Shown: in pieces, positions 1-10,389 of the stretch | Numbering within the stretch: the first letter of the stretch is position 1 | Layout of the letters: each line of letters begins with the position of its first letter | Source: Xanthovirga aplysinae | GTDB taxonomy: Bacteria; Bacteroidota; Bacteroidia; Cytophagales; Cyclobacteriaceae | NCBI RefSeq assembly: GCF_009711365.1 | Contig: NZ_SMMB01001185.1 | Coordinates: forward strand, 1-10,602 | Direction of reading: 5' to 3' | Length of the DNA stretch: 10,602 nt | Notes under the pieces: generated by a model | What the model saw: the letters and a program-made list of their open reading frames with translations, nothing else | Told to the model about the DNA's origin: nothing | Database searches by the model: none | Program-made: the position numbers and the translations under genes

Positions 1-100
1 ATATAGGATCATTGTTTTTTCATGCTTTATAGTGTTTGGAAGAAAACTATTAGTTTTTAGTTTCAAAAGGATATTTTTTGGAAAAAAATATTGCTAATTT

Positions 101-131
101 TTTGAGCAATTATGATTTTTTATTAAATTTG
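101..131 (+). promoter_or_regulatory. Candidate Bacteroidota sigma-A-type promoter: -33 TTTG at 101-104, 19 nt spacer, -7 TAAATTTG at 124-131
   Basis: Exact match to the Bacteroides -7 consensus TAnnTTTG, with a TTTG 19 nt upstream (consensus spacing 19-21). Lies in the AT-rich leader upstream of the gene cluster. It is about 360 nt from the first ATG, so it would imply a long 5' UTR. Confidence 0.3.
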
Positions 132-174
132 AAACATGTCGCACTGCTAATTATATTGGTGACTGGATCGGGCC

Positions 175-186
175 AGCCCATGGGCT
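175..186. promoter_or_regulatory. GC-rich perfect 12-bp palindrome AGCCCATGGGCT in an otherwise very AT-rich leader; possible dimeric regulator binding site
   Basis: Read directly: positions 175-186 equal their own reverse complement. The local context (ggatcgggccAGCCCATGGGCTttctg) is the only GC-rich island in the 1-490 leader. Confidence 0.25.
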
Positions 187-235
187 TTCTGAAAATTATT
201 TATTGATCACAAAAAATAGGAATATGAATTAATTA

Positions 236-268
236 TTTGATTTGAGTTGAAATTTATGATTACATTTG
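236..268 (+). promoter_or_regulatory. Second candidate Bacteroidota-type promoter: -33 TTTG at 236-239, 21 nt spacer, -7 TACATTTG at 261-268
   Basis: TAnnTTTG match, with a TTTG at the consensus spacing. Predicted TSS is about 275, roughly 220 nt upstream of the nfeD-like ATG. Confidence 0.3.
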
Positions 269-493
269 GCATTTTTCACAGCGTAAAATTATTTAAGTCT
301 GATTTCATGCGATCCTGGTTTGTTTTGGAGTGGGTTCTAAATACGAGAGAGGGATTTTTAAGAATTTTACAATTCTCTGAATGTGAGTAACTATGCCTTG
401 ACCGTTAGGTTTGTTGCTAATCTATAAATGCCCAGTAACCCAATCAAAAGAAGGGCCTTTTTTGATGATCTTTAACCCTTTAAACCCTCAGCT

Positions 494-1126
494 ATGAGTG
501 AACTATTTTCGGCTTCTGTTTCTGTTGTCAATATTATTCCAACTACCTTGTTGGTTTTTATATTAATCTACTGGGTGACCGTCATTCTTGGAGTTTTGGA
601 CTTTAATTTTCTGGATTTTGACCTGGAGCTGGATTTGGAATTAGATGCAGAGGCAGATGGAGAAATATCCGTGGCCTGGCTAAATTCTGTATTAGCCTTT
701 TTTAACCTGGGTAAGGTGCCCTTTATGGTGTTTATGAGCTTTTTGGCCTTACCCTTATGGATTATTTCGGTGTTGAGTAACCATTTCCTAGGAAATACTT
801 CCATACTCATTGCTTTGCTCATATTATTGGCTGACTTTTTTATAAGTTTGTTTGTGGCAAAATTTCTGACCATGCCTTTGATTAAGCTTTTTGGAAAGAT
901 GGAGGAAGATACCGAAGGGGCTGTTACCGTGGTGGGAAAAATTTGTACAGTTTTGCTTCGGGTAGAGGATGGAAAATTAGGTCAGGCAAAAGTCAATCAT
1001 TCTGGTTCACCTATTTTGCTAAATGTACGATCTGCTAAAGGGGTATCATTGAAAAAGGGGGAGACTGGTCTGGTGATTGACTATCTTGAAAGTGAAAAAA
1101 TATATTTAATTGAACCATATAAATAA
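494..1126 (+). CDS. NfeD/YqiJ/YuaF-like membrane protein. N-terminal multi-TM region followed by a C-terminal OB-fold beta-barrel. Typical partner of SPFH/flotillin proteins
   Basis: 210-aa ORF with an ATG start. The N-terminal half holds 3-4 hydrophobic helices (IIPTTLLVFILIYWVTVILGVL; FMVFMSFLALPLWIISVL; ILIALLILLADFFISLFVA). The C-terminal ~70 aa are Gly/Val-rich and beta-strand-like (GAVTVVGKICTVLLRVEDGKLGQAKVNHSGSPILLNVRS...GETGLVIDY), typical of the NfeD short-form beta domain. The stop lies 7 nt before the flotillin ATG, the same arrangement as yqiJ-yqiK and yuaF-yuaG. Confidence 0.8.
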   Translation: MSELFSASVSVVNIIPTTLLVFILIYWVTVILGVLDFNFLDFDLELDLELDAEADGEISVAWLNSVLAFFNLGKVPFMVFMSFLALPLWIISVLSNHFLGNTSILIALLILLADFFISLFVAKFLTMPLIKLFGKMEEDTEGAVTVVGKICTVLLRVEDGKLGQAKVNHSGSPILLNVRSAKGVSLKKGETGLVIDYLESEKIYLIEPYK

Positions 1127-1133
1127 ATAGTAA

Positions 1134-3284
1134 ATGGATATACTAGAACAAACCATTGGGGCTGCTATTATCATAGGAGTAGTAGTATTGATCGGAATCA
1201 TTGCCCTTTTCATTAAAATGTATAAAAAGGCTGTTCAAGGGGAAGCCCTTGTAAAGACTGGGCTTGGAGGAACGAAGGTTGATTTTTCAGGAATGTTTGT
1301 AGTTCCGGTATTACATAAATTGGAAAAAATGGACATCACGTTAAAAACGATTGTCATTTCCAGAACGGGATCAGAAGGGTTAATTTGTAAAGACAACCTG
1401 AGAGCTGATATCAAAGTAACATTTTTCGTTCGTGTGAATAAAACCGAGGAGGATGTAAAAGACGTAGCTCAATCTATTGGTTGTTCCCGAGCTTCTGATC
1501 CTCAGCAGTTGGAACAATTGTTCGATGCCAAATTTTCCGAAGCTTTGAAAACTGTGGGTAAACGTTTCGATTTTGTTGAGCTTTATAATTCTCGCAACGA
1601 TTTTAAATTGGGGATTTTGGATATCATAGGTACAGACCTAAATGGGTATGTATTAGATGACTGTGCTATTGATTACCTTGAACAGACTCCTGTAGCCTCT
1701 CTGGATGCCAATAACATTCTGGATGCACAGGGGATAAAGAAAATCACTGAACTTACATCAAAAGAAAAGGTGGAGGCGAACCTGATTGAAAATGAGAAGG
1801 AAAAGACCATCAAGCAGCAGAATGTAGAAGCAAAGGAAACTTTGTTGCAGCTAGATAAACAATTGGCAGAAAATGAAGAAAAGCAGAGAAGGGAGATTGC
1901 TACGATTAAGTCTAGGGAGCAGGCAGAAATAGATAAAGTAGCACAGGAAGAACGTTTAAAAGCCGAACAGGCTCGTATTGCTACTGAGGAGGAAATTCAG
2001 GTCGCCGAACAAAACAAAGCGCGGCAAGTACTGGTAGCCGAAAAGAATAAGGAGAAAACCGATGCTATAGAGTCGGAGCGTGTAGACAAAGAGCGTTTGT
2101 TGGAGCAGACTGAGAAGGATAGAATTGTAGCCCTGGCACAGATTGAAAAGGAAAAGGCACTTGAAGAAGAACGCAAAAATATTCAGGATGTGATCCGGGA
2201 GAGAGTTGCCGTAGAAAAAGCAGTGGTGGAAGAAGAAGAAAAAATCAAGGAAACCAAAGCAATTGCGGAAGCGGACAGAAATAAGAAAGTTGCGATCACC
2301 AATGCTGAAAAAGAGGCAGAGGAAACCTTGGTGAAGGAAATCAAACTGGCTGAAGCTAAACGTCAGGCAGCAGAATTTAAGGCCAAGCAGCTATTGGTAG
2401 AATCGGAAGCGGAACAGGCATCTGCAGGACAAAGAGCCGAGGCTATTAAGATATTAGCTGAAGCAGAAGCGGCTAAGGAGGCAGCTTTGGGAATGTCAGA
2501 AGCTCAGGTAATGGAGGCCAAAGCGGCAGCACTGGAGAAAGAGGGTGATGCCCAGGCTCATGTTATTGAAGCAAAAGGAGAAGCGGAAGCAGCAGCCCTA
2601 AAGAATATGGGAGTTGCACAAGCAGAAGCTGATAAGAAAATTGGATTGGCCAATGCAGAGGTGATGGAGGCCACAGCCACGGCTGAGGAGAAAAAGGGTC
2701 TTGCTGGAACACGGGTAGAGGCTGAAAAATATACCGTGGAGGCCAAAGGAATTGCCGATAAGGCGGAAGCTATGAAACAGTTAGATAACGTTAGCCGTGA
2801 GCATGAGGAGTTTAGACTGCGTTTAGATACTCAAAAAGAAATTGAAATGGCCAAATTGGAAGTGGAACAACGATTGGCTGAGGCCCAGGCGGGAATCATG
2901 GCTGAGGCACTAAAAGCGGCTAAGATTGATATTGTAGGCGGTGAAAGTATGTTCTTCGATCAAATTACCAAAGCCATTACCAAAGGTAAAGCCATTGACC
3001 GGGCGGTTGACAATAGCAAAACCCTGGGGCAATTAAAAGATAATTTCTTCAATGGGAATGGAAATGGGGAGGTTTCCTCTTTTAAAGAAAACCTTCGGGC
3101 CTTTGTAGATCAGTTTGGTGTTTCCTCTGACGAACTGAAATCTCTGAGCATTTCTGCCTTGCTGTTAAAAATGAGTCAGCAGACATCTAATCAGCAAGTG
3201 CAACAAACAATTTCCGAAATGGAAAATATGGCTAAAACCATGGGAGTTTCTGATAAAACGCTGAAGGCGATCGGCTTGGCGTAA
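1134..3284 (+). CDS. Flotillin family SPFH/band-7 protein (YqiK/FloT-like) with a greatly extended Glu/Ala-rich coiled-coil region
   Basis: 716-aa ORF. It has an N-terminal TM helix (IGAAIIIGVVVLIGIIALFI), then motifs I recognise from E. coli YqiK and B. subtilis FloT: ALVKTGLGGTKV, GLICKDNLRADIKVTFFVRVNKTEEDVKDVAQSIG, QLEQLFDAKF. About 400 aa of E/A/K/Q-rich heptad-like sequence (flotillin EA repeats) follow, then a Gly/Asn-containing C-terminal tail. Confidence 0.9.
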   Translation: MDILEQTIGAAIIIGVVVLIGIIALFIKMYKKAVQGEALVKTGLGGTKVDFSGMFVVPVLHKLEKMDITLKTIVISRTGSEGLICKDNLRADIKVTFFVRVNKTEEDVKDVAQSIGCSRASDPQQLEQLFDAKFSEALKTVGKRFDFVELYNSRNDFKLGILDIIGTDLNGYVLDDCAIDYLEQTPVASLDANNILDAQGIKKITELTSKEKVEANLIENEKEKTIKQQNVEAKETLLQLDKQLAENEEKQRREIATIKSREQAEIDKVAQEERLKAEQARIATEEEIQVAEQNKARQVLVAEKNKEKTDAIESERVDKERLLEQTEKDRIVALAQIEKEKALEEERKNIQDVIRERVAVEKAVVEEEEKIKETKAIAEADRNKKVAITNAEKEAEETLVKEIKLAEAKRQAAEFKAKQLLVESEAEQASAGQRAEAIKILAEAEAAKEAALGMSEAQVMEAKAAALEKEGDAQAHVIEAKGEAEAAALKNMGVAQAEADKKIGLANAEVMEATATAEEKKGLAGTRVEAEKYTVEAKGIADKAEAMKQLDNVSREHEEFRLRLDTQKEIEMAKLEVEQRLAEAQAGIMAEALKAAKIDIVGGESMFFDQITKAITKGKAIDRAVDNSKTLGQLKDNFFNGNGNGEVSSFKENLRAFVDQFGVSSDELKSLSISALLLKMSQQTSNQQVQQTISEMENMAKTMGVSDKTLKAIGLA
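2400..2780 (+). repeat. Densest Glu-Ala (EA) repeat block, low complexity, within the flotillin coiled coil (the coiled coil as a whole spans ~1750-2940)
   Basis: The translation reads ...EAEQASAGQRAEAIKILAEAEAAKEAALGMSEAQVMEAKAAALEKEGDAQAHVIEAKGEAEAAALKNMGVAQAEADKK...VEAKGIADKAEAMKQ, with recurring h-EAK/EAEAA units. The GC-rich GCN/GAR codon run also creates the spurious minus-strand ORF 2558-2746. Confidence 0.55.
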
Positions 3285-3306
3285 GATCAGATTGGAATTT
3301 CTTCCT

Positions 3307-3330
3307 AGAGACAAGGCATGCCTTGTCTCT
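3307..3330 (+). terminator. Perfect 24-bp palindrome (AGAGACAAGG-CATG-CCTTGTCTCT) 22 nt after the flotillin stop. Intrinsic terminator, attenuator or processing hairpin, or alternatively a protein-binding site
   Basis: Read directly: 3307-3330 is its own reverse complement. As RNA it gives a 10-bp stem (5 G:C pairs) with a CAUG tetraloop. There is no U-tract after it, which is common for Bacteroidota terminators but lowers confidence. Confidence 0.4.
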
Positions 3331-3369
3331 GCACCCATCAAAATTGTTTCTACAAGAAAAGGGAAACAT

Positions 3370-3786
3370 ATGAAGCAGGTATTTCAATTGAAGAAAGGGG
3401 AGATTACAATAAATGACGAGGAAATTATTATAAATGACCAAGCCGAAAGAGAAAACCGGAGGTGGCTTTTTAGTTCGGGCATATGGACAATTTATGGAAT
3501 AGCCTCTGTTGGAAGATATTTTACGACCGGGGACCAGTTTTTACTTTGGTCAGGATTATTGATAGGGATCCTTCATTGTATAAATTTCATCATTAGAATA
3601 ATTTTTAGATCAACCACAAGGCAAATAAAACTCCAGGAAATTGATTACATAAAAATTAAACAGAGGTTCAATAATAGGTTTCTTGAAATAAAACTTTTAG
3701 GAAATAAAGTAAGAAGGATCAATCAAATTCAGGATATAGAAGAAGACCTTAAGCCTTATTTGGGAAGATACTCCAAATCTAAATAG
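3370..3786 (+). CDS. Hypothetical small membrane protein, 138 aa. Short acidic N-terminus, two adjacent TM helices, then a charged beta-strand-like C-terminus
   Basis: The ORF-track frame 3292-3786 begins inside the 24-bp palindrome, so I use the in-frame ATG at 3370 (MKQVFQLKKGEITINDEEIIINDQ...). Hydrophobic segments are WLFSSGIWTIYGIASVG and FLLWSGLLIGILHCINFIIRIIF. The C-terminus has alternating I/L/V residues (IDYIKIKQRFNNRFLEIKLLGNKVRRI). No family recognised. Confidence 0.5.
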   Translation: MKQVFQLKKGEITINDEEIIINDQAERENRRWLFSSGIWTIYGIASVGRYFTTGDQFLLWSGLLIGILHCINFIIRIIFRSTTRQIKLQEIDYIKIKQRFNNRFLEIKLLGNKVRRINQIQDIEEDLKPYLGRYSKSK

Positions 3787-3799
3787 GCATTCATCAACT

Positions 3800-3821
3800 A
3801 AAAGGAGAATATTCCTTTTTT
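3800..3821 (+). terminator. Weak terminator-like hairpin (AAAAGGA-gaatat-TCCTTTT) followed by extra T residues
   Basis: 7-bp stem that is mostly A:U, a 6-nt loop and a T-run, 14 nt after the 3786 stop. Low predicted stability. Confidence 0.2.
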
Positions 3822-3904
3822 ACTAGCAAGAGAAACCTGGGGTATTTTCCTGATTTTGTCCGAGCTGAAGACTTAAAATTAATTTTTGACTAAAATCCTA
3901 TAGT

Positions 3905-4822
3905 ATGGAAAAAGAAATAAAATTAAAAAATAACGGTTTTTTTTACCTTTTTGTCCATCTAATATTTTTGTTTTCTCCCTTTCTTTTGATTTCCATTAGA
4001 GATGGCTGGGTGATTGCTGGGACACTCTTTTTATCCTTTTATGCTCTCATTGGGCTCATCGGATTTTTTATCGTTCAACCAAATCAAACCAAAGTATTGG
4101 TGTTCTTTGGAAAATATAAAGGCACGGTGAAACAAAATGGATTTTTCTGGTTAAATCCATTCTATACGAAAAAGAAAGTCTCCCTACGAGTAAGAAATCT
4201 TGAAACGGATATTATAAAGGTGAATGATGAGCAGGGAAACCCTATCCTAATTAGTGCCGTGGTGGTATGGAAAGTGATTGATACTTATAAAGCTGTTTTC
4301 GACATTGAGGCAAAGGAAGAAGTAGATTCCAAATCGGGGATGAAGAAAGTAAAGGCAGAAGAATCCTACCAAAATTTTGTGAAAATTCAGGCCGAGGCTG
4401 CATTGCGAAGAATAGCCCATTCCTATCCCTATGATAATTTAGAAGAGGGGCAGGAAGATGGTATTAGCTTGCGATCTGGTGTAGATGAAATAAATAAATC
4501 CCTTGCCTCTGAAATAAAAGAAAGGTTGAAAATAGTGGGTATAGAAGTGATGGAAGCCCGAATATCCAACTTATCATATGCTCCTGAAATAGCAGCTATC
4601 ATGTTGCAAAGGCAACAGGCTCAGGCTATCATTTCGGCTCGAAAGAAGATAGTAAAAGGCTCTGTGGGAATGGTGGAAATGGCACTGCAGGAGTTGTCAG
4701 AAAAAGAGATTGTGAAATTGTCCCCCGAAAAGAAAGCTTCCATGGTAAGTAATTTAATGGTGGTCTTATGCTCTGATCAAGGCACCTCTCCTGTGGTGAA
4801 TACTGGAATTGATCATAGTTAG
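3905..4822 (+). CDS. SPFH/band-7 domain protein of the stomatin/HflC/prohibitin type; second SPFH paralogue in the locus
   Basis: 305-aa ORF with N-terminal hydrophobic segments FFYLFVHLIFLFSPFLLISI and WVIAGTLFLSFYALIGLIGFFIV. A canonical SPFH core follows: VQPNQTKVLVFFGKYKGTVKQNGFFWLNPFYTKKKVSLRVRNLETDIIKVNDEQGNPILISAVVVWKVIDTYKAVFDIE. A stomatin-like helical C-terminus closes it: LKIVGIEVMEARISNLSYAPEIAAIMLQRQQAQAIISARKKIV. Confidence 0.85.
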   Translation: MEKEIKLKNNGFFYLFVHLIFLFSPFLLISIRDGWVIAGTLFLSFYALIGLIGFFIVQPNQTKVLVFFGKYKGTVKQNGFFWLNPFYTKKKVSLRVRNLETDIIKVNDEQGNPILISAVVVWKVIDTYKAVFDIEAKEEVDSKSGMKKVKAEESYQNFVKIQAEAALRRIAHSYPYDNLEEGQEDGISLRSGVDEINKSLASEIKERLKIVGIEVMEARISNLSYAPEIAAIMLQRQQAQAIISARKKIVKGSVGMVEMALQELSEKEIVKLSPEKKASMVSNLMVVLCSDQGTSPVVNTGIDHS

Positions 4823-4932
4823 GGAATACGAAATGAAATATTGTTTTTAAGGAATAGGATGGTGAAATTTTAGTTAACTCCCTTTTTCTGAACCTTAATG
4901 ATAAATGGTTGGCCAGGATAAAAACCGAAATA

Positions 4933-5349
4933 ATGAATACTATCTATTTGGAAGAAAAGATCAAAAGTTTAAGCTGGCAAAAAGAGCCTTTTTTGACCAA
5001 ACTATTAACCAGTCGACTGAAATATATGCAAAATGCTGGGTTTGCTGCAAGTGGTTTGGGATTAACGCAAGATAGGTTAGAAGCCAGAATAAAAAGAGTA
5101 AAACGGATCATTATCTTTTCTTCTATCCTCTTGGGCCTAAAGCTTTTAGTAGTTGCATTTATTTTTTTGGGGCAGAACCTGATAACCACATATACCATTG
5201 AGACCGATATTCTGTCCCCAATATTTTGGGCAGCCATTTTCTATGGAATTCGGCTGGAAAACAAGCTAAAGCTAGCCTATTTAGAAGAAATTAAAATGCT
5301 TAGACACATGCTCAACCCTGGAGATGAAGCAGAGAATTCTTTGTCATGA
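4933..5349 (+). CDS. Hypothetical small membrane protein, 138 aa. Helical soluble N-terminus, then 1-2 TM helices
   Basis: The ORF track starts this frame at a TTG at 4909. The first in-frame ATG is at 4933 (MNTIYLEEKIKSLSWQ...). TM segments are IIIFSSILLGLKLLVVAFIFLG and ILSPIFWAAIFYGI. No family recognised. Same strand as the cluster and properly spaced within it. Confidence 0.5.
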   Translation: MNTIYLEEKIKSLSWQKEPFLTKLLTSRLKYMQNAGFAASGLGLTQDRLEARIKRVKRIIIFSSILLGLKLLVVAFIFLGQNLITTYTIETDILSPIFWAAIFYGIRLENKLKLAYLEEIKMLRHMLNPGDEAENSLS

Positions 5350-5450
5350 CAAGAAGTCTTTAATATCCCGACGGGAATAGGGGAGGTGAATTACTCCTGG
5401 TGAATAAAATCCAAGATTTTGGCCTGATAAACCTCAAGATTGAATAAGAA

Positions 5451-8400
5451 ATGAAAGACAAGGAAACATTAGATAGATCAGTAGAATCCTCAGAGAAAAC
5501 TCAGTTGGAAAGTGGTACCTATGAAATCCTGCAAAATAGATTACAAAATAGCGGGCATGAATTAAGAAGCCGTTTGGAGCAGTTGAATGAAACCCGAAAG
5601 GAAGTTTTCGGATCAATAGAAACCAATCTGATTGCCACAGAGCGAGTGAATACAGAAAATAATTGCGTTTCTCGTGATATGGTGCCTTTGGGCGATCAGT
5701 TTATTTTTGGCTACAATGTTTTTATTGGCCTTAAAACTGAGACTAAGTTATCTGATGTTTTCAGTATTTACACCTATGAAGACCATAGTTTTCATCAGGC
5801 TACCATGGGGCTAATTGCCGATGATCGTTTTGAAGACGATTTCAAAAAGCTCTATAAATACTATAGGGATAGTCGTTTCCGAAAATTCGTTAAAAAGGAG
5901 GGCTTCCTGTATATGGTTTTTAAGATAGGGAAAGCGGAAACCGACTTGAAGGCCTTTAAATGGCGTATTGAGGGGAAGAAGCTTATCTATGTGGATAACC
6001 GCAGTGAACATGAAGTAGTGTTTCCTGATCAGCATGAGTTTCAATGGATCAGAACAAAAAGAGAGCAATACAGAGAAGGGAAGCATCCCCACATTTCCAT
6101 AGAAGATAAAATTTTTGTTGAGACCCTGGGGGGAGGTTTGACCATCAAGGTGGAAGACAACACCGAGGATGGGCAGGGTATTTATGCCGAGGAGGTGGAG
6201 CACAAAGAGCAACGCCTCGAAGATGCTGAAATCTACTATGCCATTATTGGAAACCTTATCGCCTTGAAAATTCGCCCTTTTCGGGAGGATGACTTCCGTT
6301 ATATTGTGTATAATAGCAAGCAACAGGAGGCCCGTCGAGTTGATGCCTTGAAAGACTCTTGCGTGCTCTTACCTGCTGATCACGGGATTATTTTCTCCCA
6401 TGGGTATTACTTACAAACTGGAGAGTTCAAGCTTTTTGATAATCAACTGACAGAAATGCTTTTCGAAAGGCAGTTGGTTTCTCCAAATGGGGAAGACTTT
6501 CTCTATGTTTTTTATAATAGAGCAGAGGGGCTTTACTTGTTGTTGTCTTACAATTTGATTGCCCAAAAGGTAGATAAGCCGATTCTTTGTCACGGCTATG
6601 CCTTATTTGAGAATGGGGAGCTATGTTTCTTCCGTGACGATGAAACAGCTAAAAAGCACCATGCTCTTCAAATTTGGCAAACTCCCTATACGGGGCCAAA
6701 TTTTGAATTACCCAAACTCAATGATTCCTACCTTTATAAGGTAGGAAATAAGGAAATCGTTACCGCCATGGCGGAAGCCTACGAACTCCTTACTCTTTTG
6801 AATAAAGAAGATTCCTATGAAGGTTTATATTATGACCTGATAAAAGGTTCTACGGACCTTCTAGACTCATATTATTGGTTAGATAAGGAAGATGCGTTCT
6901 CCCTTAAGGAACCTTTGAAGCAATTATTAGATACGGCTACTTCAGCAGTAGATGAATTTGATAAAGTTAGCCAGATAAAGGCCAATACCCAGGAACAAAC
7001 ATTAATCACCTTTGGTAGGGCAGATGAACTTATTAAGAAAATCAATAGGCAGAAGATTACCCACATTAATGATTTTGTTGCTTTCATTTCGGATCTAAGA
7101 ACTATAAGAGGAGAGGTTATTTCTCTAAAGGATTTGAGATATGTGGTTCTTGAAACCGTAGAAGAGTATGAAGGGGCTTTAGAGGACTTGAATAAAAAAT
7201 TGTCTGCCGATTGTGTGCAATTTCTTTTAAAAGTTGAAGCCCTGGCTCCTTATAGGGATAATGTAAATGAATTAAAGGGGGAGGTAGAGGCTGTTGCCAA
7301 GGTTAGTCAGGGCCGTAAACTGCAGGAAGAAAATAATAAATTGGCCAAAGAGCTGGAAATGTTGATTGATATTGTGAGCAACCTGCAGCAGGACGATGCT
7401 ACAGAAACTACCCGGATATTAGACAGCATTTCGGCTATTTATGCCAACTTTAACCAGATAAAAGCCTCTTTAAAGCGAAAGTTGAAAGAGTTGCTTCTGG
7501 TAGAAGGAAAAGCAGAGTTCAATGCACAGTTAAAGCTTATCGATCAAGGGGTGGCTAACTATCTGGACCTTTGTGACCAACCGGAAAAATGTGATGAATA
7601 CCTCACCAAACTCATGGTCCAAATTGAGGAATTGGAAGGTAAATTCTCCGAATTCGATGAGTTTATAGAGCGCCTTTCTCAATTAAGGGAGGAGATCTAT
7701 AATGCTTTTGACTCTAGAAAACAATTCTTGCTTGAAGCTAGAAACAAAAGGGCGAATACTTTGCTCCAGGCTGCTGACCGTCTTTTAAGTGCAGTAAAAA
7801 GCCGGGTCAATCGCTTTAAATCTGCCAATGAGGTGAATGGCTATTTTGCCTCTGACTTAATGTTGGAGAAACTTAGGAGTATTGTCGAGGAGTTGCAGCA
7901 AATGGGAGACAATGTTAAGGCTGATGATATTCAAAGCCGAATGAAGTCTCTCAAGACAGAAACCCTCCGACAGTTGAAGGATAAAAATGAGTTGTTTACC
8001 GAAGGGGACAATCTGTTGAAATTTGGTGATTATCATTTTACCGTAAATACACAGGCCTTGGGGTTAACCATGGTTTATCGTGATAAAAAGATGAATTTTC
8101 ATCTGACGGGTACCAACTTTTTTGAAGAGGTAAAGGACGAGGCATTCCTTTCTTGTCAGGAGGTATGGGAGCAGACTCTGGTTTCAGAAAATCAGCAGGT
8201 TTATCGCTCAGAATATTTGGCTTTTCAGTTATACCAACGTGCGCAAAGTTCAACCAATGAAGAGGGTGCACTAAACCTTCATGATTTATATAAATTGAAC
8301 GAACAGGAATTGTTGGAGTATGTGCAAGGTTTTATGGCTATTCGTTACAACGAAGGCTATGTAAAAGGAGTGCACGATCAGGATGCTGCAAAAATCCTGA

Positions 8401-10187
8401 AGGCTTTGGTGTCCCTGAAAACTAAAGCCAGTTTGCTGTCTTATGATTCCCTGAATCGTTCGGTGGCGGCACTTTATTGGAGACTTTTTGCCAATGAATC
8501 TAGCAAAGGGTCATTCGAGCAGCAGTTAAAAGGGGTTTCTGCTATCTTGAAAGTTTTCCCGGACAGTAAAGAATTCGAGGACTTAAAGAAAAACTTGCAG
8601 CAGCAAATTAATGCTTTTGCCGAAACAACCGGTTTATTCCAATTGGAAGATATTACCCAGGCAGGGGAATATTTATTTTATGAGTTGTTGGAGGATAAAA
8701 GTTTGGTGGTGTCTAAAGAAGCACAGGAACTTTATCAATTGTTTGAAGCTCGTTTAAAAGCCAAACAAGCCTGGAAATCTTTTGAAGCTTCTTTGCAAGC
8801 AATCCAAGAATCTCCAGAGTTACGATTTATTCAATTAACCCGCTGGTTAAGGGCTTTCGTTCAACAGGAAGGTTGTTATCAATATGTTGATAATATATCA
8901 GAAACGGCGGCTATTTTTCTTACTGAGGGATTTGCCAAAGCTAGGAGAATTGAAACATCTTTGGGAATGTCAATGGAAAGCTTACAGGGAGATCATCGCT
9001 TAATAGCCGAAAATGGATATCAATTACACCTAACAAACTTTATAAAACGTCTGAATAATTTTTCTCAACATACGGTTCCTTTGTTCGAGCAATTTTCGGA
9101 ATTGAAAAAACAACTGATCCACAAGCAGGAAGAAGTTCTCCGTTTGAAGGAGTTTAAACCGAAGGTGATGTCCTCTTTTGTAAGGAATAAATTGATAGAT
9201 AAAGTATATCTTCCTTTGATTGGAGCTAATCTGGCCAAACAGATCGGGACAGGAGGAGAAAATAAACGTACCGACCTGATGGGGATGCTCCTATTAATCT
9301 CTCCTCCGGGTTATGGTAAAACTACCTTGATGGAATACATTGCCAACCGATTGGGGATCATTTTTATGAAAATAAACGGTCCGGCTATAGGTCATGAGGT
9401 GACGGCATTAGATCCTGCTGAGGCGCCAAATGCAGGGGCCAGACAGGAGCTTGAAAAGCTTAACCTTTCTTTTGAAATGGGGGATAACGTGATGATCTAC
9501 TTGGATGATATACAGCATTGTAATCCTGAGTTTTTGCAAAAATTTATTTCTCTTTGTGATGCCCAGCGAAAGATTGAAGGGGTTTACAAGGGCAAAAGCA
9601 AAACCTATGACTTTCGTGGTAAGAAGGTTTGTGTGGTGATGGCCGGAAATCCTTACACAGAAAGTGGGGATAAATTCCAGATTCCTGATATGTTAGCTAA
9701 CCGGGCAGATATCTACAACTTGGGAGATGTGATAGGGGATGCTGAAGAAGTCTTCAAACTGAGTTATATTGAAAACTGTCTTACCTCTCATCCTCTGATG
9801 AACAAACTGGCATCAAAAAGCTTCAAAGACGTGCATGCCATTCTACGGCTCGCTGAAACAGGACAGCAGGAAGGGCTGGAATTTGAAGCGAAGCATTCGG
9901 CAGAAGAGCTAAATGAGTACGTGGCCGTTTTGAAGAAACTTCTTAAAGTGAGGGATATTGTTTTGAAAGTAAATATGCAATATATCTATTCTGCCTCCCA
10001 AGCCGAGGAGTATAGAAAAGAGCCCCCTTTTAAACTGCAGGGTTCTTACCGAAATATGAATAAGATGGTCGAAAAAATTTCAGCCATCATGAATGAGAAG
10101 GAGTTAAAAAGTGTCATCCTTTCCCATTATGAGGGAGAGTCCCAGACCCTAACCAGCGGAGCTGGAAGCGAACCTTCTGAAATTTAA
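5451..10187 (+). CDS. Giant (1578 aa) multidomain protein: an N-terminal ~430-aa beta-rich domain of unknown function, ~800 aa of alpha-helix/coiled coil, and a C-terminal MoxR/AAA_5-class AAA+ ATPase domain
   Basis: A single uninterrupted ORF with an ATG start. The C-terminal region carries Walker A LLLISPPGYGKTTLMEYIANRLG, Walker B VMIYLDDIQH, sensor-1 VCVVMAGNPYTESG and IPDMLANRADIYNL, matching the MoxR/dynein-like AAA_5 arrangement. The middle region is rich in L/E/K/Q heptad-like sequence. The N-terminal region alternates hydrophobic and polar residues (beta-strand-like) and matches no motif I recognise. Confidence 0.88.
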   Translation: MKDKETLDRSVESSEKTQLESGTYEILQNRLQNSGHELRSRLEQLNETRKEVFGSIETNLIATERVNTENNCVSRDMVPLGDQFIFGYNVFIGLKTETKLSDVFSIYTYEDHSFHQATMGLIADDRFEDDFKKLYKYYRDSRFRKFVKKEGFLYMVFKIGKAETDLKAFKWRIEGKKLIYVDNRSEHEVVFPDQHEFQWIRTKREQYREGKHPHISIEDKIFVETLGGGLTIKVEDNTEDGQGIYAEEVEHKEQRLEDAEIYYAIIGNLIALKIRPFREDDFRYIVYNSKQQEARRVDALKDSCVLLPADHGIIFSHGYYLQTGEFKLFDNQLTEMLFERQLVSPNGEDFLYVFYNRAEGLYLLLSYNLIAQKVDKPILCHGYALFENGELCFFRDDETAKKHHALQIWQTPYTGPNFELPKLNDSYLYKVGNKEIVTAMAEAYELLTLLNKEDSYEGLYYDLIKGSTDLLDSYYWLDKEDAFSLKEPLKQLLDTATSAVDEFDKVSQIKANTQEQTLITFGRADELIKKINRQKITHINDFVAFISDLRTIRGEVISLKDLRYVVLETVEEYEGALEDLNKKLSADCVQFLLKVEALAPYRDNVNELKGEVEAVAKVSQGRKLQEENNKLAKELEMLIDIVSNLQQDDATETTRILDSISAIYANFNQIKASLKRKLKELLLVEGKAEFNAQLKLIDQGVANYLDLCDQPEKCDEYLTKLMVQIEELEGKFSEFDEFIERLSQLREEIYNAFDSRKQFLLEARNKRANTLLQAADRLLSAVKSRVNRFKSANEVNGYFASDLMLEKLRSIVEELQQMGDNVKADDIQSRMKSLKTETLRQLKDKNELFTEGDNLLKFGDYHFTVNTQALGLTMVYRDKKMNFHLTGTNFFEEVKDEAFLSCQEVWEQTLVSENQQVYRSEYLAFQLYQRAQSSTNEEGALNLHDLYKLNEQELLEYVQGFMAIRYNEGYVKGVHDQDAAKILKALVSLKTKASLLSYDSLNRSVAALYWRLFANESSKGSFEQQLKGVSAILKVFPDSKEFEDLKKNLQQQINAFAETTGLFQLEDITQAGEYLFYELLEDKSLVVSKEAQELYQLFEARLKAKQAWKSFEASLQAIQESPELRFIQLTRWLRAFVQQEGCYQYVDNISETAAIFLTEGFAKARRIETSLGMSMESLQGDHRLIAENGYQLHLTNFIKRLNNFSQHTVPLFEQFSELKKQLIHKQEEVLRLKEFKPKVMSSFVRNKLIDKVYLPLIGANLAKQIGTGGENKRTDLMGMLLLISPPGYGKTTLMEYIANRLGIIFMKINGPAIGHEVTALDPAEAPNAGARQELEKLNLSFEMGDNVMIYLDDIQHCNPEFLQKFISLCDAQRKIEGVYKGKSKTYDFRGKKVCVVMAGNPYTESGDKFQIPDMLANRADIYNLGDVIGDAEEVFKLSYIENCLTSHPLMNKLASKSFKDVHAILRLAETGQQEGLEFEAKHSAEELNEYVAVLKKLLKVRDIVLKVNMQYIYSASQAEEYRKEPPFKLQGSYRNMNKMVEKISAIMNEKELKSVILSHYEGESQTLTSGAGSEPSEI
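9240..9800 (+). other. AAA+ ATPase module (AAA_5/MoxR-like) inside the giant protein: Walker A about 9306-9329, Walker B DD at 9504-9509, sensor-1 AGNP at 9642-9653
   Basis: Motifs read directly from the translation. The spacing Walker A ... ~60 aa ... hhhhDD ... ~45 aa ... hhhAGNP ... L-x-NRAD is the MoxR/AAA_5 pattern (GPPGxGKT / hhhDE / ATxNP / LxDRF). Confidence 0.7.
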
Positions 10188-10203
10188 AGCGCTTTCCGGT
10201 TGG

Positions 10204-10389
10204 ATGAGTGAAGAAGAACAAGAACGTTGGGAGGAGATCAAGCAAACTTTCCAGAAGCATCAACAATTGAAAGGCCTAGGTGAAAATAATCAGATGGCGC
10301 AATTGGTGATGGAAATGCAATCGCTTAGTGATGGGTTGGAGGGTATTAAAAAGGCTATTGCCAAGGATGGGATAGTGGTAGAAGAATAG
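10204..10389 (+). CDS. Small acidic helical protein of 61 aa, probably co-transcribed with the giant ATPase gene
   Basis: ATG start 16 nt after the 10187 stop, same strand. Sequence MSEEEQERWEEIKQTFQKHQQLKGLGENNQMAQLVMEMQSLSDGLEGIKKAIAKDGIVVEE is E/K/Q-rich and predicted helical. A strong hairpin follows 42 nt downstream. The short length keeps confidence modest. Confidence 0.4.
   Translation: MSEEEQERWEEIKQTFQKHQQLKGLGENNQMAQLVMEMQSLSDGLEGIKKAIAKDGIVVEE

Follow-up and report, generated by a model that had tools for sequence, protein, structure and literature searches.

How does a very large AAA+ ATPase come to be encoded beside flotillin-type membrane proteins, and which of the genes around it belong to the same system? 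This question is raised by a 10,602-bp stretch of DNA from Xanthovirga aplysinae (Bacteroidota, Cytophagales relatives), which is a complete contig (NZ_SMMB01001185.1) and is referred to below as the window. A first-pass annotation of this DNA had read it as seven same-strand genes in which two systems built on SPFH proteins are joined to the ATPase. We find that the window contains a copy of a conserved membrane module of three genes, which encode a YqiJ/NfeD-like protein, a flotillin of the YqiK type and a giant, soluble AAA+ ATPase. This copy has been slightly damaged by a frameshift, and it is interrupted by three unrelated genes lodged between the flotillin and the ATPase. The three genes of the module are the following.

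Positions 494..1126, plus strand: p1, a 210-aa YqiJ/YuaF-type (NfeD-like) membrane protein, assigned by hhalign, family alignment and hydropathy.
Positions 1134..3284, plus strand: p2, a 716-aa YqiK-type flotillin, assigned by a Band_7 match and by BLASTP to YqiK.
Positions 5451..10389, plus strand: giant cytoplasmic AAA+ ATPase, read as two open reading frames (ORFs) of 1578 aa (5451-10187) and 61 aa (10204-10389), and 1645 aa long once the frameshift is repaired.

All long ORFs of the window lie on the plus strand, and the ORFs of the opposite strand are short and overlap the plus-strand genes. The previously listed ORFs were found again at the same positions, with no long ORF of another kind between them. 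Thus, the ORFs, their common strand and the lack of an intervening gene were all borne out. The gene count was not: the cluster comprises six genes rather than seven, because the last, 61-aa ORF is the tail of the ATPase and is rejoined to it by removing one G at 10164/10165.

Identity of the YqiJ-like protein and the flotillin

Profile and sequence comparisons confirmed that p1 is a member of the YqiJ/NfeD-like family and p2 a YqiK-type flotillin. An alignment of the 24-member p1 family, together with hydropathy, indicates that p1 has approximately three transmembrane (TM) segments and a D-rich, acidic loop, and that it ends in an OB-like beta domain. p1 matched Escherichia coli YqiJ in hhalign with a probability of 96% (E 4.6e-9), and Pfam YqiJ_N matches 8 of the 24 family members. 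In p2, a single N-terminal TM segment and an SPFH/Band_7 domain are followed by a long helical region rich in E/A/K and by a C-terminal domain; the protein aligned with E. coli YqiK by BLASTP (E 1e-48, 30% identity across 444 aa).

In Pfam scans, Band_7 was detected in a second SPFH protein of the window (p4, below) and AAA_5 in the ATPase. In p2, Band_7 appeared (E 1.2e-11) only when the N-terminal 230 aa were scanned alone; the full-length protein had no Pfam match, and the Flot domain was not detected in either scan. p1 alone gave no significant Pfam match and was placed with YqiJ by hhalign. A search of the PDB with the flotillin returned nothing. Similarly, the precomputed Pfam field is empty for the p2 homologue (4103-6238) of Fulvivirgaceae BMA10 (locus L084), the closest relative with a long contig. 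Because the full-length flotillin lacks a Pfam match, neighbourhood screens based on Pfam miss the SPFH link of the ATPase family. In Pfam and NCBI the ATPase bears the name 'DNA repair ATPase' or 'ATPase involved in DNA repair', and this name, together with the missing full-length flotillin match, hides the association of the two proteins.

Conservation of the module

A scan of 185,579 species genomes yielded at least 565 relatives of the ATPase, and the best 80 loci were analysed. Their ATPases are 47-63% identical to that of the window, and they come from seven phyla: Bacteroidota, Planctomycetota, Verrucomicrobiota, Desulfobacterota, Clostridia, Kiritimatiellota and Omnitrophota. For synteny counts, the six-frame ORFs of the loci were searched with the window proteins, and only the 63 loci with at least 3.5 kb of upstream DNA were counted. 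A p2 homologue lies upstream of the ATPase on the same strand in 60 of the 63, and homologues of both p1 and p2 do so in 57. In these related loci the flotillin and ATPase genes overlap by 11 nt at the closest and are 2360 nt apart at the widest. The median distance is near 120 nt, and outside Bacteroidota it is mostly below 150 nt.

More distant relatives, found by tblastn in plasmid records, show 34-42% ATPase identity over the full length. The order small protein, flotillin, ATPase recurs in Pseudomonas fluorescens pQBR103, in a Streptomyces linear plasmid and in a Deinococcus plasmid, and profile searches identified the two upstream genes in all three as p1 and p2 homologues. Overall, the ATPase (~1600 aa) is 34-63% identical across about ten phyla. 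The link between ATPase, flotillin and YqiJ-like protein is thus strongly conserved across these phyla. The proposal, made from the window alone, that the giant ATPase is tied to an NfeD-like/flotillin pair is upheld by these counts (60/63 and 57/63), and the converse pattern, with ATPase homologues mostly away from SPFH/NfeD genes, was not found.

Domains of the ATPase and the frameshift

The ATPase contains the following features.

Positions 5559..6875 (residues 37-475), plus strand: DUF3686 (Pfam E 1.9e-186), with a long N-terminal helix, a beta-rich region and a helical bundle.
Positions 7236..7490 (residues 596-680), plus strand: DUF7902 helical domain (Pfam E 2.6e-26).
Positions 9288..9659 (residues ~1280-1403), plus strand: AAA+ P-loop core (Pfam AAA E 1.1e-6, AAA_5 E 1.8e-5).
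Positions 10164..10165, plus strand: +1 frameshift site, one extra G in GCTGGAAGC.

An AlphaFold2 (AF2) model of residues 1-560 (predicted local distance difference test (pLDDT) 82.9, predicted template modelling score (pTM) 0.76) places a beta-rich region (59-410) between a long helix and a helical bundle. The beta-rich region of DUF3686 is weakly beta-propeller-like. The AF2 model of the C-terminal AAA+ region has low confidence (pLDDT 61.8). In the family alignment, the Walker A motif GYGKTT, the sensor-1 residue N1400 and R1418 are invariant, as is the Walker B motif YLDDIQH (residues 1352-1358; window 9504-9524), which has DD in place of the usual DE. This Walker B motif resembles the DEIH of RuvB with the catalytic Glu replaced. 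Hydropathy revealed no TM segment in the ATPase, and Pfam found no match to Peptidase_M41, MIT or Vps4_C. In a PDB search, the ATPase profile matched only p97 and RuvB, and these only in the surroundings of Walker A; no solved structure related to the ATPase beyond that region was found.

The 61-aa ORF had been taken for a separate acidic protein and, together with the small membrane proteins, for an adaptor. Comparison with homologues identifies it as the conserved C-terminal end of the ATPase itself. Deletion of one G at 10164/10165 (GCTGGAAGC) gives a 1645-aa ORF that carries the near-invariant consensus SGAEANLLKFK, and ATPase homologues are typically 1632-1692 aa long, with a few longer. 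The homologues end in ...TSGAEANLLKFK...E..RW..IK..F....G.G..NQ..., which matches the 61-aa ORF. Matches to the 61-aa sequence occur in 73 of 80 related loci, always within the ATPase ORF or its C-terminal fragment. The frameshift falls 77 codons before the natural end of the ATPase and splits off the conserved RW..IK..F tail. It is either a real mutation or a sequencing error.

The large protein is 100% identical to an NCBI entry from X. aplysinae, and in the NCBI annotation the truncated 1578-aa product counts as complete. In a Rubripirellula metagenome-assembled genome (locus L046), the ATPase is likewise divided between two ORFs (9926-12256 and 12578-15241), so that the window is not alone in having a frameshifted or broken copy.

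Association with PspA

The context of the module was determined by clustering all ORFs in the loci and from precomputed Pfam matches for L084. In 22-24 Bacteroidota loci, PspA_IM30 and CesT_Tir/YbjN-like genes directly precede the trio. Upstream of CesT-PspA, 22 Bacteroidota loci carry a divergent HTH_3/Peptidase_S24 regulator (HTH-XRE, LexA/CI-like), in a region approximately 3.5-6 kb upstream of the ATPase (L003-L080), and a PLD gene is present in 6. The P. fluorescens SBW25 megaplasmid pQBR103 (L090, 84437-97641) carries a ten-gene operon that ends in the trio, in the order YjfI-PspA-rhomboid-DUF2491-DUF350-DUF1190-glutathionylspermidine synthase followed by YqiJ-like-SPFH-ATPase. This plasmid has been well studied in experimental evolution and so offers a ready genetic system. 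In many bacteria, the trio forms the distal end of an envelope-stress operon with PspA and CesT. Downstream of the trio, L084 has genes for DUF4178, DUF350 and a spermine synthase.

Beside p1, several loci of Verrucomicrobiota (L051/L053-L055/L057) and Kiritimatiellota have a different small HTH-like gene, usually in divergent orientation. Together with the S24 regulator of the Bacteroidota loci, this gene suggests that regulation may be dedicated to the trio and specific to each lineage.

A system of this composition had been thought undescribed. However, the same operon was defined by Ravi et al. 2024 (mSystems 9:e00847-23, PMC11237479), by comparative genomics only, as CesT/Tir-PspA, a band-7/flotillin protein, a YqiJ/YuaF 3-TM protein, an AAA+ ATPase and sometimes PLD. 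These authors also noted abbreviated operons without PspA, which are more widely spread, and proposed a role in sub-membrane dynamics (PMC11237479). The window has the elements by which their operon is recognised, namely the YqiJ/YuaF-type 3-TM protein, the flotillin and the ATPase, adjacent on the same strand. The trio has therefore already been described in silico, and the window is a further copy. What it adds is a case of cargo inserted where the flotillin and ATPase genes meet, together with a frameshifted copy, and little new biology. The importance of the trio itself lies in its conservation and in its genetic tie to PspA and flotillin, two membrane-shaping systems.

Genes lodged between the flotillin and the ATPase

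The interval between p2 and the ATPase contains these features.

Positions 3307..3330, plus strand: perfect 24-nt palindrome (AGAGACAAGGCA|TGCCTTGTCTCT), starting 23 nt past the flotillin stop codon.
Positions 3370..3786, plus strand: p3, a 138-aa small membrane protein of a small family (142 representative clusters).
Positions 3905..4822, plus strand: p4, a 305-aa stomatin/HflC-like SPFH protein with an N-terminal hydrophobic hairpin (Band_7 E 2.5e-24).
Positions 4933..5349, plus strand: p5, a 138-aa hypothetical membrane protein, an ORFan.

Two start codons are available for p3 (3292 or 3370, ORF end 3786) and for p5 (4909 or 4933, ORF end 5349), and the better-supported ones are ATG 3370 and ATG 4933. 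For p3, ATG 3370 was chosen because the family homologues align from residue 1. The TTG at 3292, which would leave a 7-nt gap after p2, was rejected; translation from it would run through the palindrome, and the homologues align from ATG 3370. With the better-supported starts, the intergenic gaps are 7 nt (p1-p2), 85 nt (p2-p3), 118 nt (p3-p4), 110 nt (p4-p5) and 101 nt (p5-ATPase).

No homologue of p3, p4 or p5 was found in any of the 80+ related ATPase loci, even at E<=10, and this result does not support the view that two SPFH systems are joined here, or that small membrane proteins act as adaptors between them and the ATPase. The p3 family consists of ~140-aa proteins whose homologues occur in unrelated contexts. 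One p3 homologue, P0242 (275 aa), has double the usual length and matches p3 in two stretches, as would be expected if the small membrane domain had been duplicated in tandem. p4 belongs to a well-conserved Bacteroidota SPFH family with homologues of 67-76% identity, whose genes stand alone in housekeeping surroundings where p3, p5 and the ATPase are missing. An exact-sequence search of the contig collection for p4 returned no record. It scores far under the cut-offs of the HflK/C models (25 vs 134 bits for hflC, 17 vs 159 bits for hflK). For p5, a search of 5.8 billion proteins returned nothing other than p5 itself, and there was no Pfam match. It may be inserted cargo or possibly not a real gene, and in the latter case the ATPase would be preceded by approximately 630 nt of non-coding DNA.

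The same junction holds other genes in other Bacteroidota. In L084 (6369-9889) it contains two small ORFs, GPP34, DUF5687 and an ABC ATPase, and the Hymenobacter loci (L008/L009/L080, about 9350-9970) have a small ORF family there. The flotillin-ATPase junction is thus a variable-cargo site in Bacteroidota, and p3-p4-p5 are best read as lodgers, that is, as putative inserted cargo outside the conserved module. As part of the overall interpretation given below, we think that p4, the second SPFH protein, is probably a bystander housekeeping gene and not the second arm of a machine. A search for flanking repeats that might mark a mobile cassette around p3-p5 found only short ones at chance level.

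Transcription signals

Positions 1..493, no strand assigned: leader, AT-rich (31% GC) and non-coding, reaching the contig end.

The contig stops 493 nt upstream of p1, and the window contains no coding sequence for PspA, CesT, HTH-S24 or PLD. The motif TAnnTTTG, the consensus of the Bacteroidota -7 box, occurs six times on the plus strand of the window, three of them in the leader (124, 261 and 406), and is absent from the internal intergenic gaps, including the four between p2 and the ATPase. A scan for sigma-70 promoters and intrinsic terminators gave counts near the shuffle expectation, with a consensus that is ill-suited to Bacteroidota.

The region of the palindrome at 3307-3330 folds with a minimum free energy of -23.8 kcal/mol (z -2.8), and no U-tract follows it. 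This hairpin may be a terminator, an attenuator or an RNA-stabilising element. Comparable or stronger hairpins follow the flotillin stop codon in many related loci (including L038, L031 and L056), in some cases with a T-run, e.g. L010 and L002. The hairpin suggests partial termination, which would yield more scaffold than ATPase. In other species, co-transcription is very likely because the flotillin and ATPase genes overlap.

Possible role of the ATPase

Reasonably likely, in our judgement, is a role in which the ATPase uses ATP to remodel flotillin and/or PspA assemblies of the membrane, on a platform formed by the flotillin and the YqiJ-like protein. The flotillin, aided by its YqiJ-like partner, whose OB domain would bind SPFH proteins, would form a cage or microdomain anchored in the membrane at its cytoplasmic side. 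Docked there through its N-terminal beta-rich and helical domains, the ATPase would, during membrane stress or repair, assemble, remodel or disassemble polymers of flotillin and/or of the ESCRT-III-like PspA, in parallel to the action of Vps4 on ESCRT-III. The predicted topology comprises a soluble ATPase, with no TM segment, and membrane-anchored p1 and p2. We infer the physical interaction of the proteins, the direction of action, with the ATPase as the remodeller of the scaffold, and the parallel with Vps4. The trio would then be a concrete candidate for the energy source or disassembly factor of bacterial PspA and flotillin assemblies. A narrower form of this proposal, in which the DUF3686 ATPase is the bacterial counterpart of Vps4 and disassembles or remodels PspA and/or flotillin cages at damaged membrane, is tentative and, we think, rather doubtful. 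According to a 2025 review (PMC7619361), a Vps4-like ATPase appears to be absent from bacteria, and the narrower proposal, if true, would overturn the statement that bacteria are without a Vps4-like regulator of PspA polymers.

Several observations weigh against a scaffold-remodelling role. In at least five loci, neither p1 nor p2 is adjacent to the ATPase; upstream DNA is ample in three of these (L022, L026 and L043) and amounts to only ~1.4-1.5 kb in L001 and L012. The 95% adjacency holds for the closer subfamily (the best 80 of at least 565 relatives), and three distant cases were spot-checked. PspA is not visible in the window, where the contig ends 493 nt upstream of p1. The DD Walker B motif may make ATP hydrolysis slow or switch-like, and the hairpin that follows the flotillin, here and in many relatives, may leave co-transcription only partial. 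Searches of the literature and the PDB found no experiment, structure or interaction data for the DUF3686 ATPase family.

The conserved adjacency of ATPase and flotillin would fit equally well with the reverse relationship, in which the flotillin/YqiJ assembly encloses and regulates the ATPase as a client and the ATPase acts on some other membrane-proximal substrate, as HflK/C does with FtsH. We regard this arrangement as unlikely, since the ATPase lacks a TM anchor, a protease or any other effector domain, since any hexamer of a 1645-aa protein would be very large and its enclosure is hard to picture, and since the linkage to PspA and CesT points to polymer dynamics. Still less probable is a coupling, particular to this lineage, of two SPFH scaffolds to the ATPase with the small membrane proteins as adaptors, which we consider very improbable: although all the genes share one strand, with gaps of at most 120 nt and no TAnnTTTG -7 box in the four gaps between p2 and the ATPase, p3, p4 and p5 are missing from all related loci, L084 has different genes at the junction, the p4 and p3 homologues stand alone or in unrelated contexts, p5 is an ORFan, and the supposed acidic protein is the ATPase's own tail.

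It had also been suggested that the genes form an anti-phage or another conflict system, with flotillin as its platform. The features that could be cited for it are the location of some copies on plasmids or megaplasmids, the variable cargo at the flotillin-ATPase junction, a DNA methyltransferase gene next to the stand-alone ATPase of L022 and scattered PADLOC matches among flanking genes. However, the core has no significant match in PADLOC-DB v2, where the ATPase gave two chance-level matches to its generic AAA region (E 0.015 and 0.025). No ATPase relative was found in 2.9 million viral contigs. The 130 flanking proteins examined from 11 loci gave scattered PADLOC matches to generic models, pooled across loci, and mixed housekeeping Pfam families, with no recurrent defence family. 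The literature on SPFH proteins and anti-phage defence, and that on YqiK/YqiJ, contained nothing relevant to the ATPase. Since, in addition, 34-63% identity over about ten phyla is unlike fast-evolving defence genes and the recurrent partners are PspA, CesT and polyamine genes, we consider defence quite unlikely. To the idea that the database name is right, and that the ATPase acts in DNA repair with an incidental flotillin neighbour, we give the least credence of all. Its only support is the Pfam and NCBI names and a weak P-loop similarity to RuvB, which is limited to ~45 residues around Walker A. Profile scans detected no nuclease, helicase or DNA-binding domain, and the synteny across about ten phyla is with membrane proteins and PspA.

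Comparison with known systems

The window resembles the abbreviated form, without PspA, of the operon of Ravi et al. 2024 (PMC11237479). It differs from that operon in having three additional genes, including a second SPFH gene, between the flotillin and the ATPase, and in the frameshift of the ATPase; PspA, CesT and PLD of the full form are not visible because the contig ends. NfeD-like and flotillin pairs are also encoded by E. coli yqiJ-yqiK and Bacillus subtilis yuaF-floT, and p1 is a homologue of YqiJ and p2 of YqiK; the two genes keep that order and are separated by 7 nt. In E. coli K-12, however, yqiK is followed by sibD/ibsD and not by such an ATPase gene, whereas the pair in the window is coupled to a 1645-aa AAA+ ATPase. 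The B. subtilis ydjFGHI operon is similar in that its SPFH protein YdjI is linked to PspA and is needed for the recruitment of PspA to the membrane; it differs in lacking an AAA+ ATPase, in its SPFH subfamily and in its partners (YdjG and YdjH).

HflK/C-FtsH is an SPFH cage around an AAA+ protease, and the module resembles it in the genetic or functional tie of an SPFH scaffold to an AAA+ machine. In contrast to FtsH, the window ATPase has neither TM helices nor an M41 protease domain, and it is no relative of FtsH, to which it is similar only at the P-loop; the scaffold is of the flotillin type and not HflK/C. A likeness to ESCRT-III/Vps4 and PspA/Vipp1 is seen in the relatives that carry a gene for PspA, a member of the ESCRT-III superfamily, in one operon with the AAA+ ATPase. 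Compared to Vps4, the window ATPase lacks a detected MIT or Vps4_C domain and its N-terminal region is built differently, so that the likeness is one of mechanism and not of membership. The presence of PspA and an AAA+ ATPase in a single operon suggests, by this analogy, that the two may take part in ATP-driven remodelling of a polymer.

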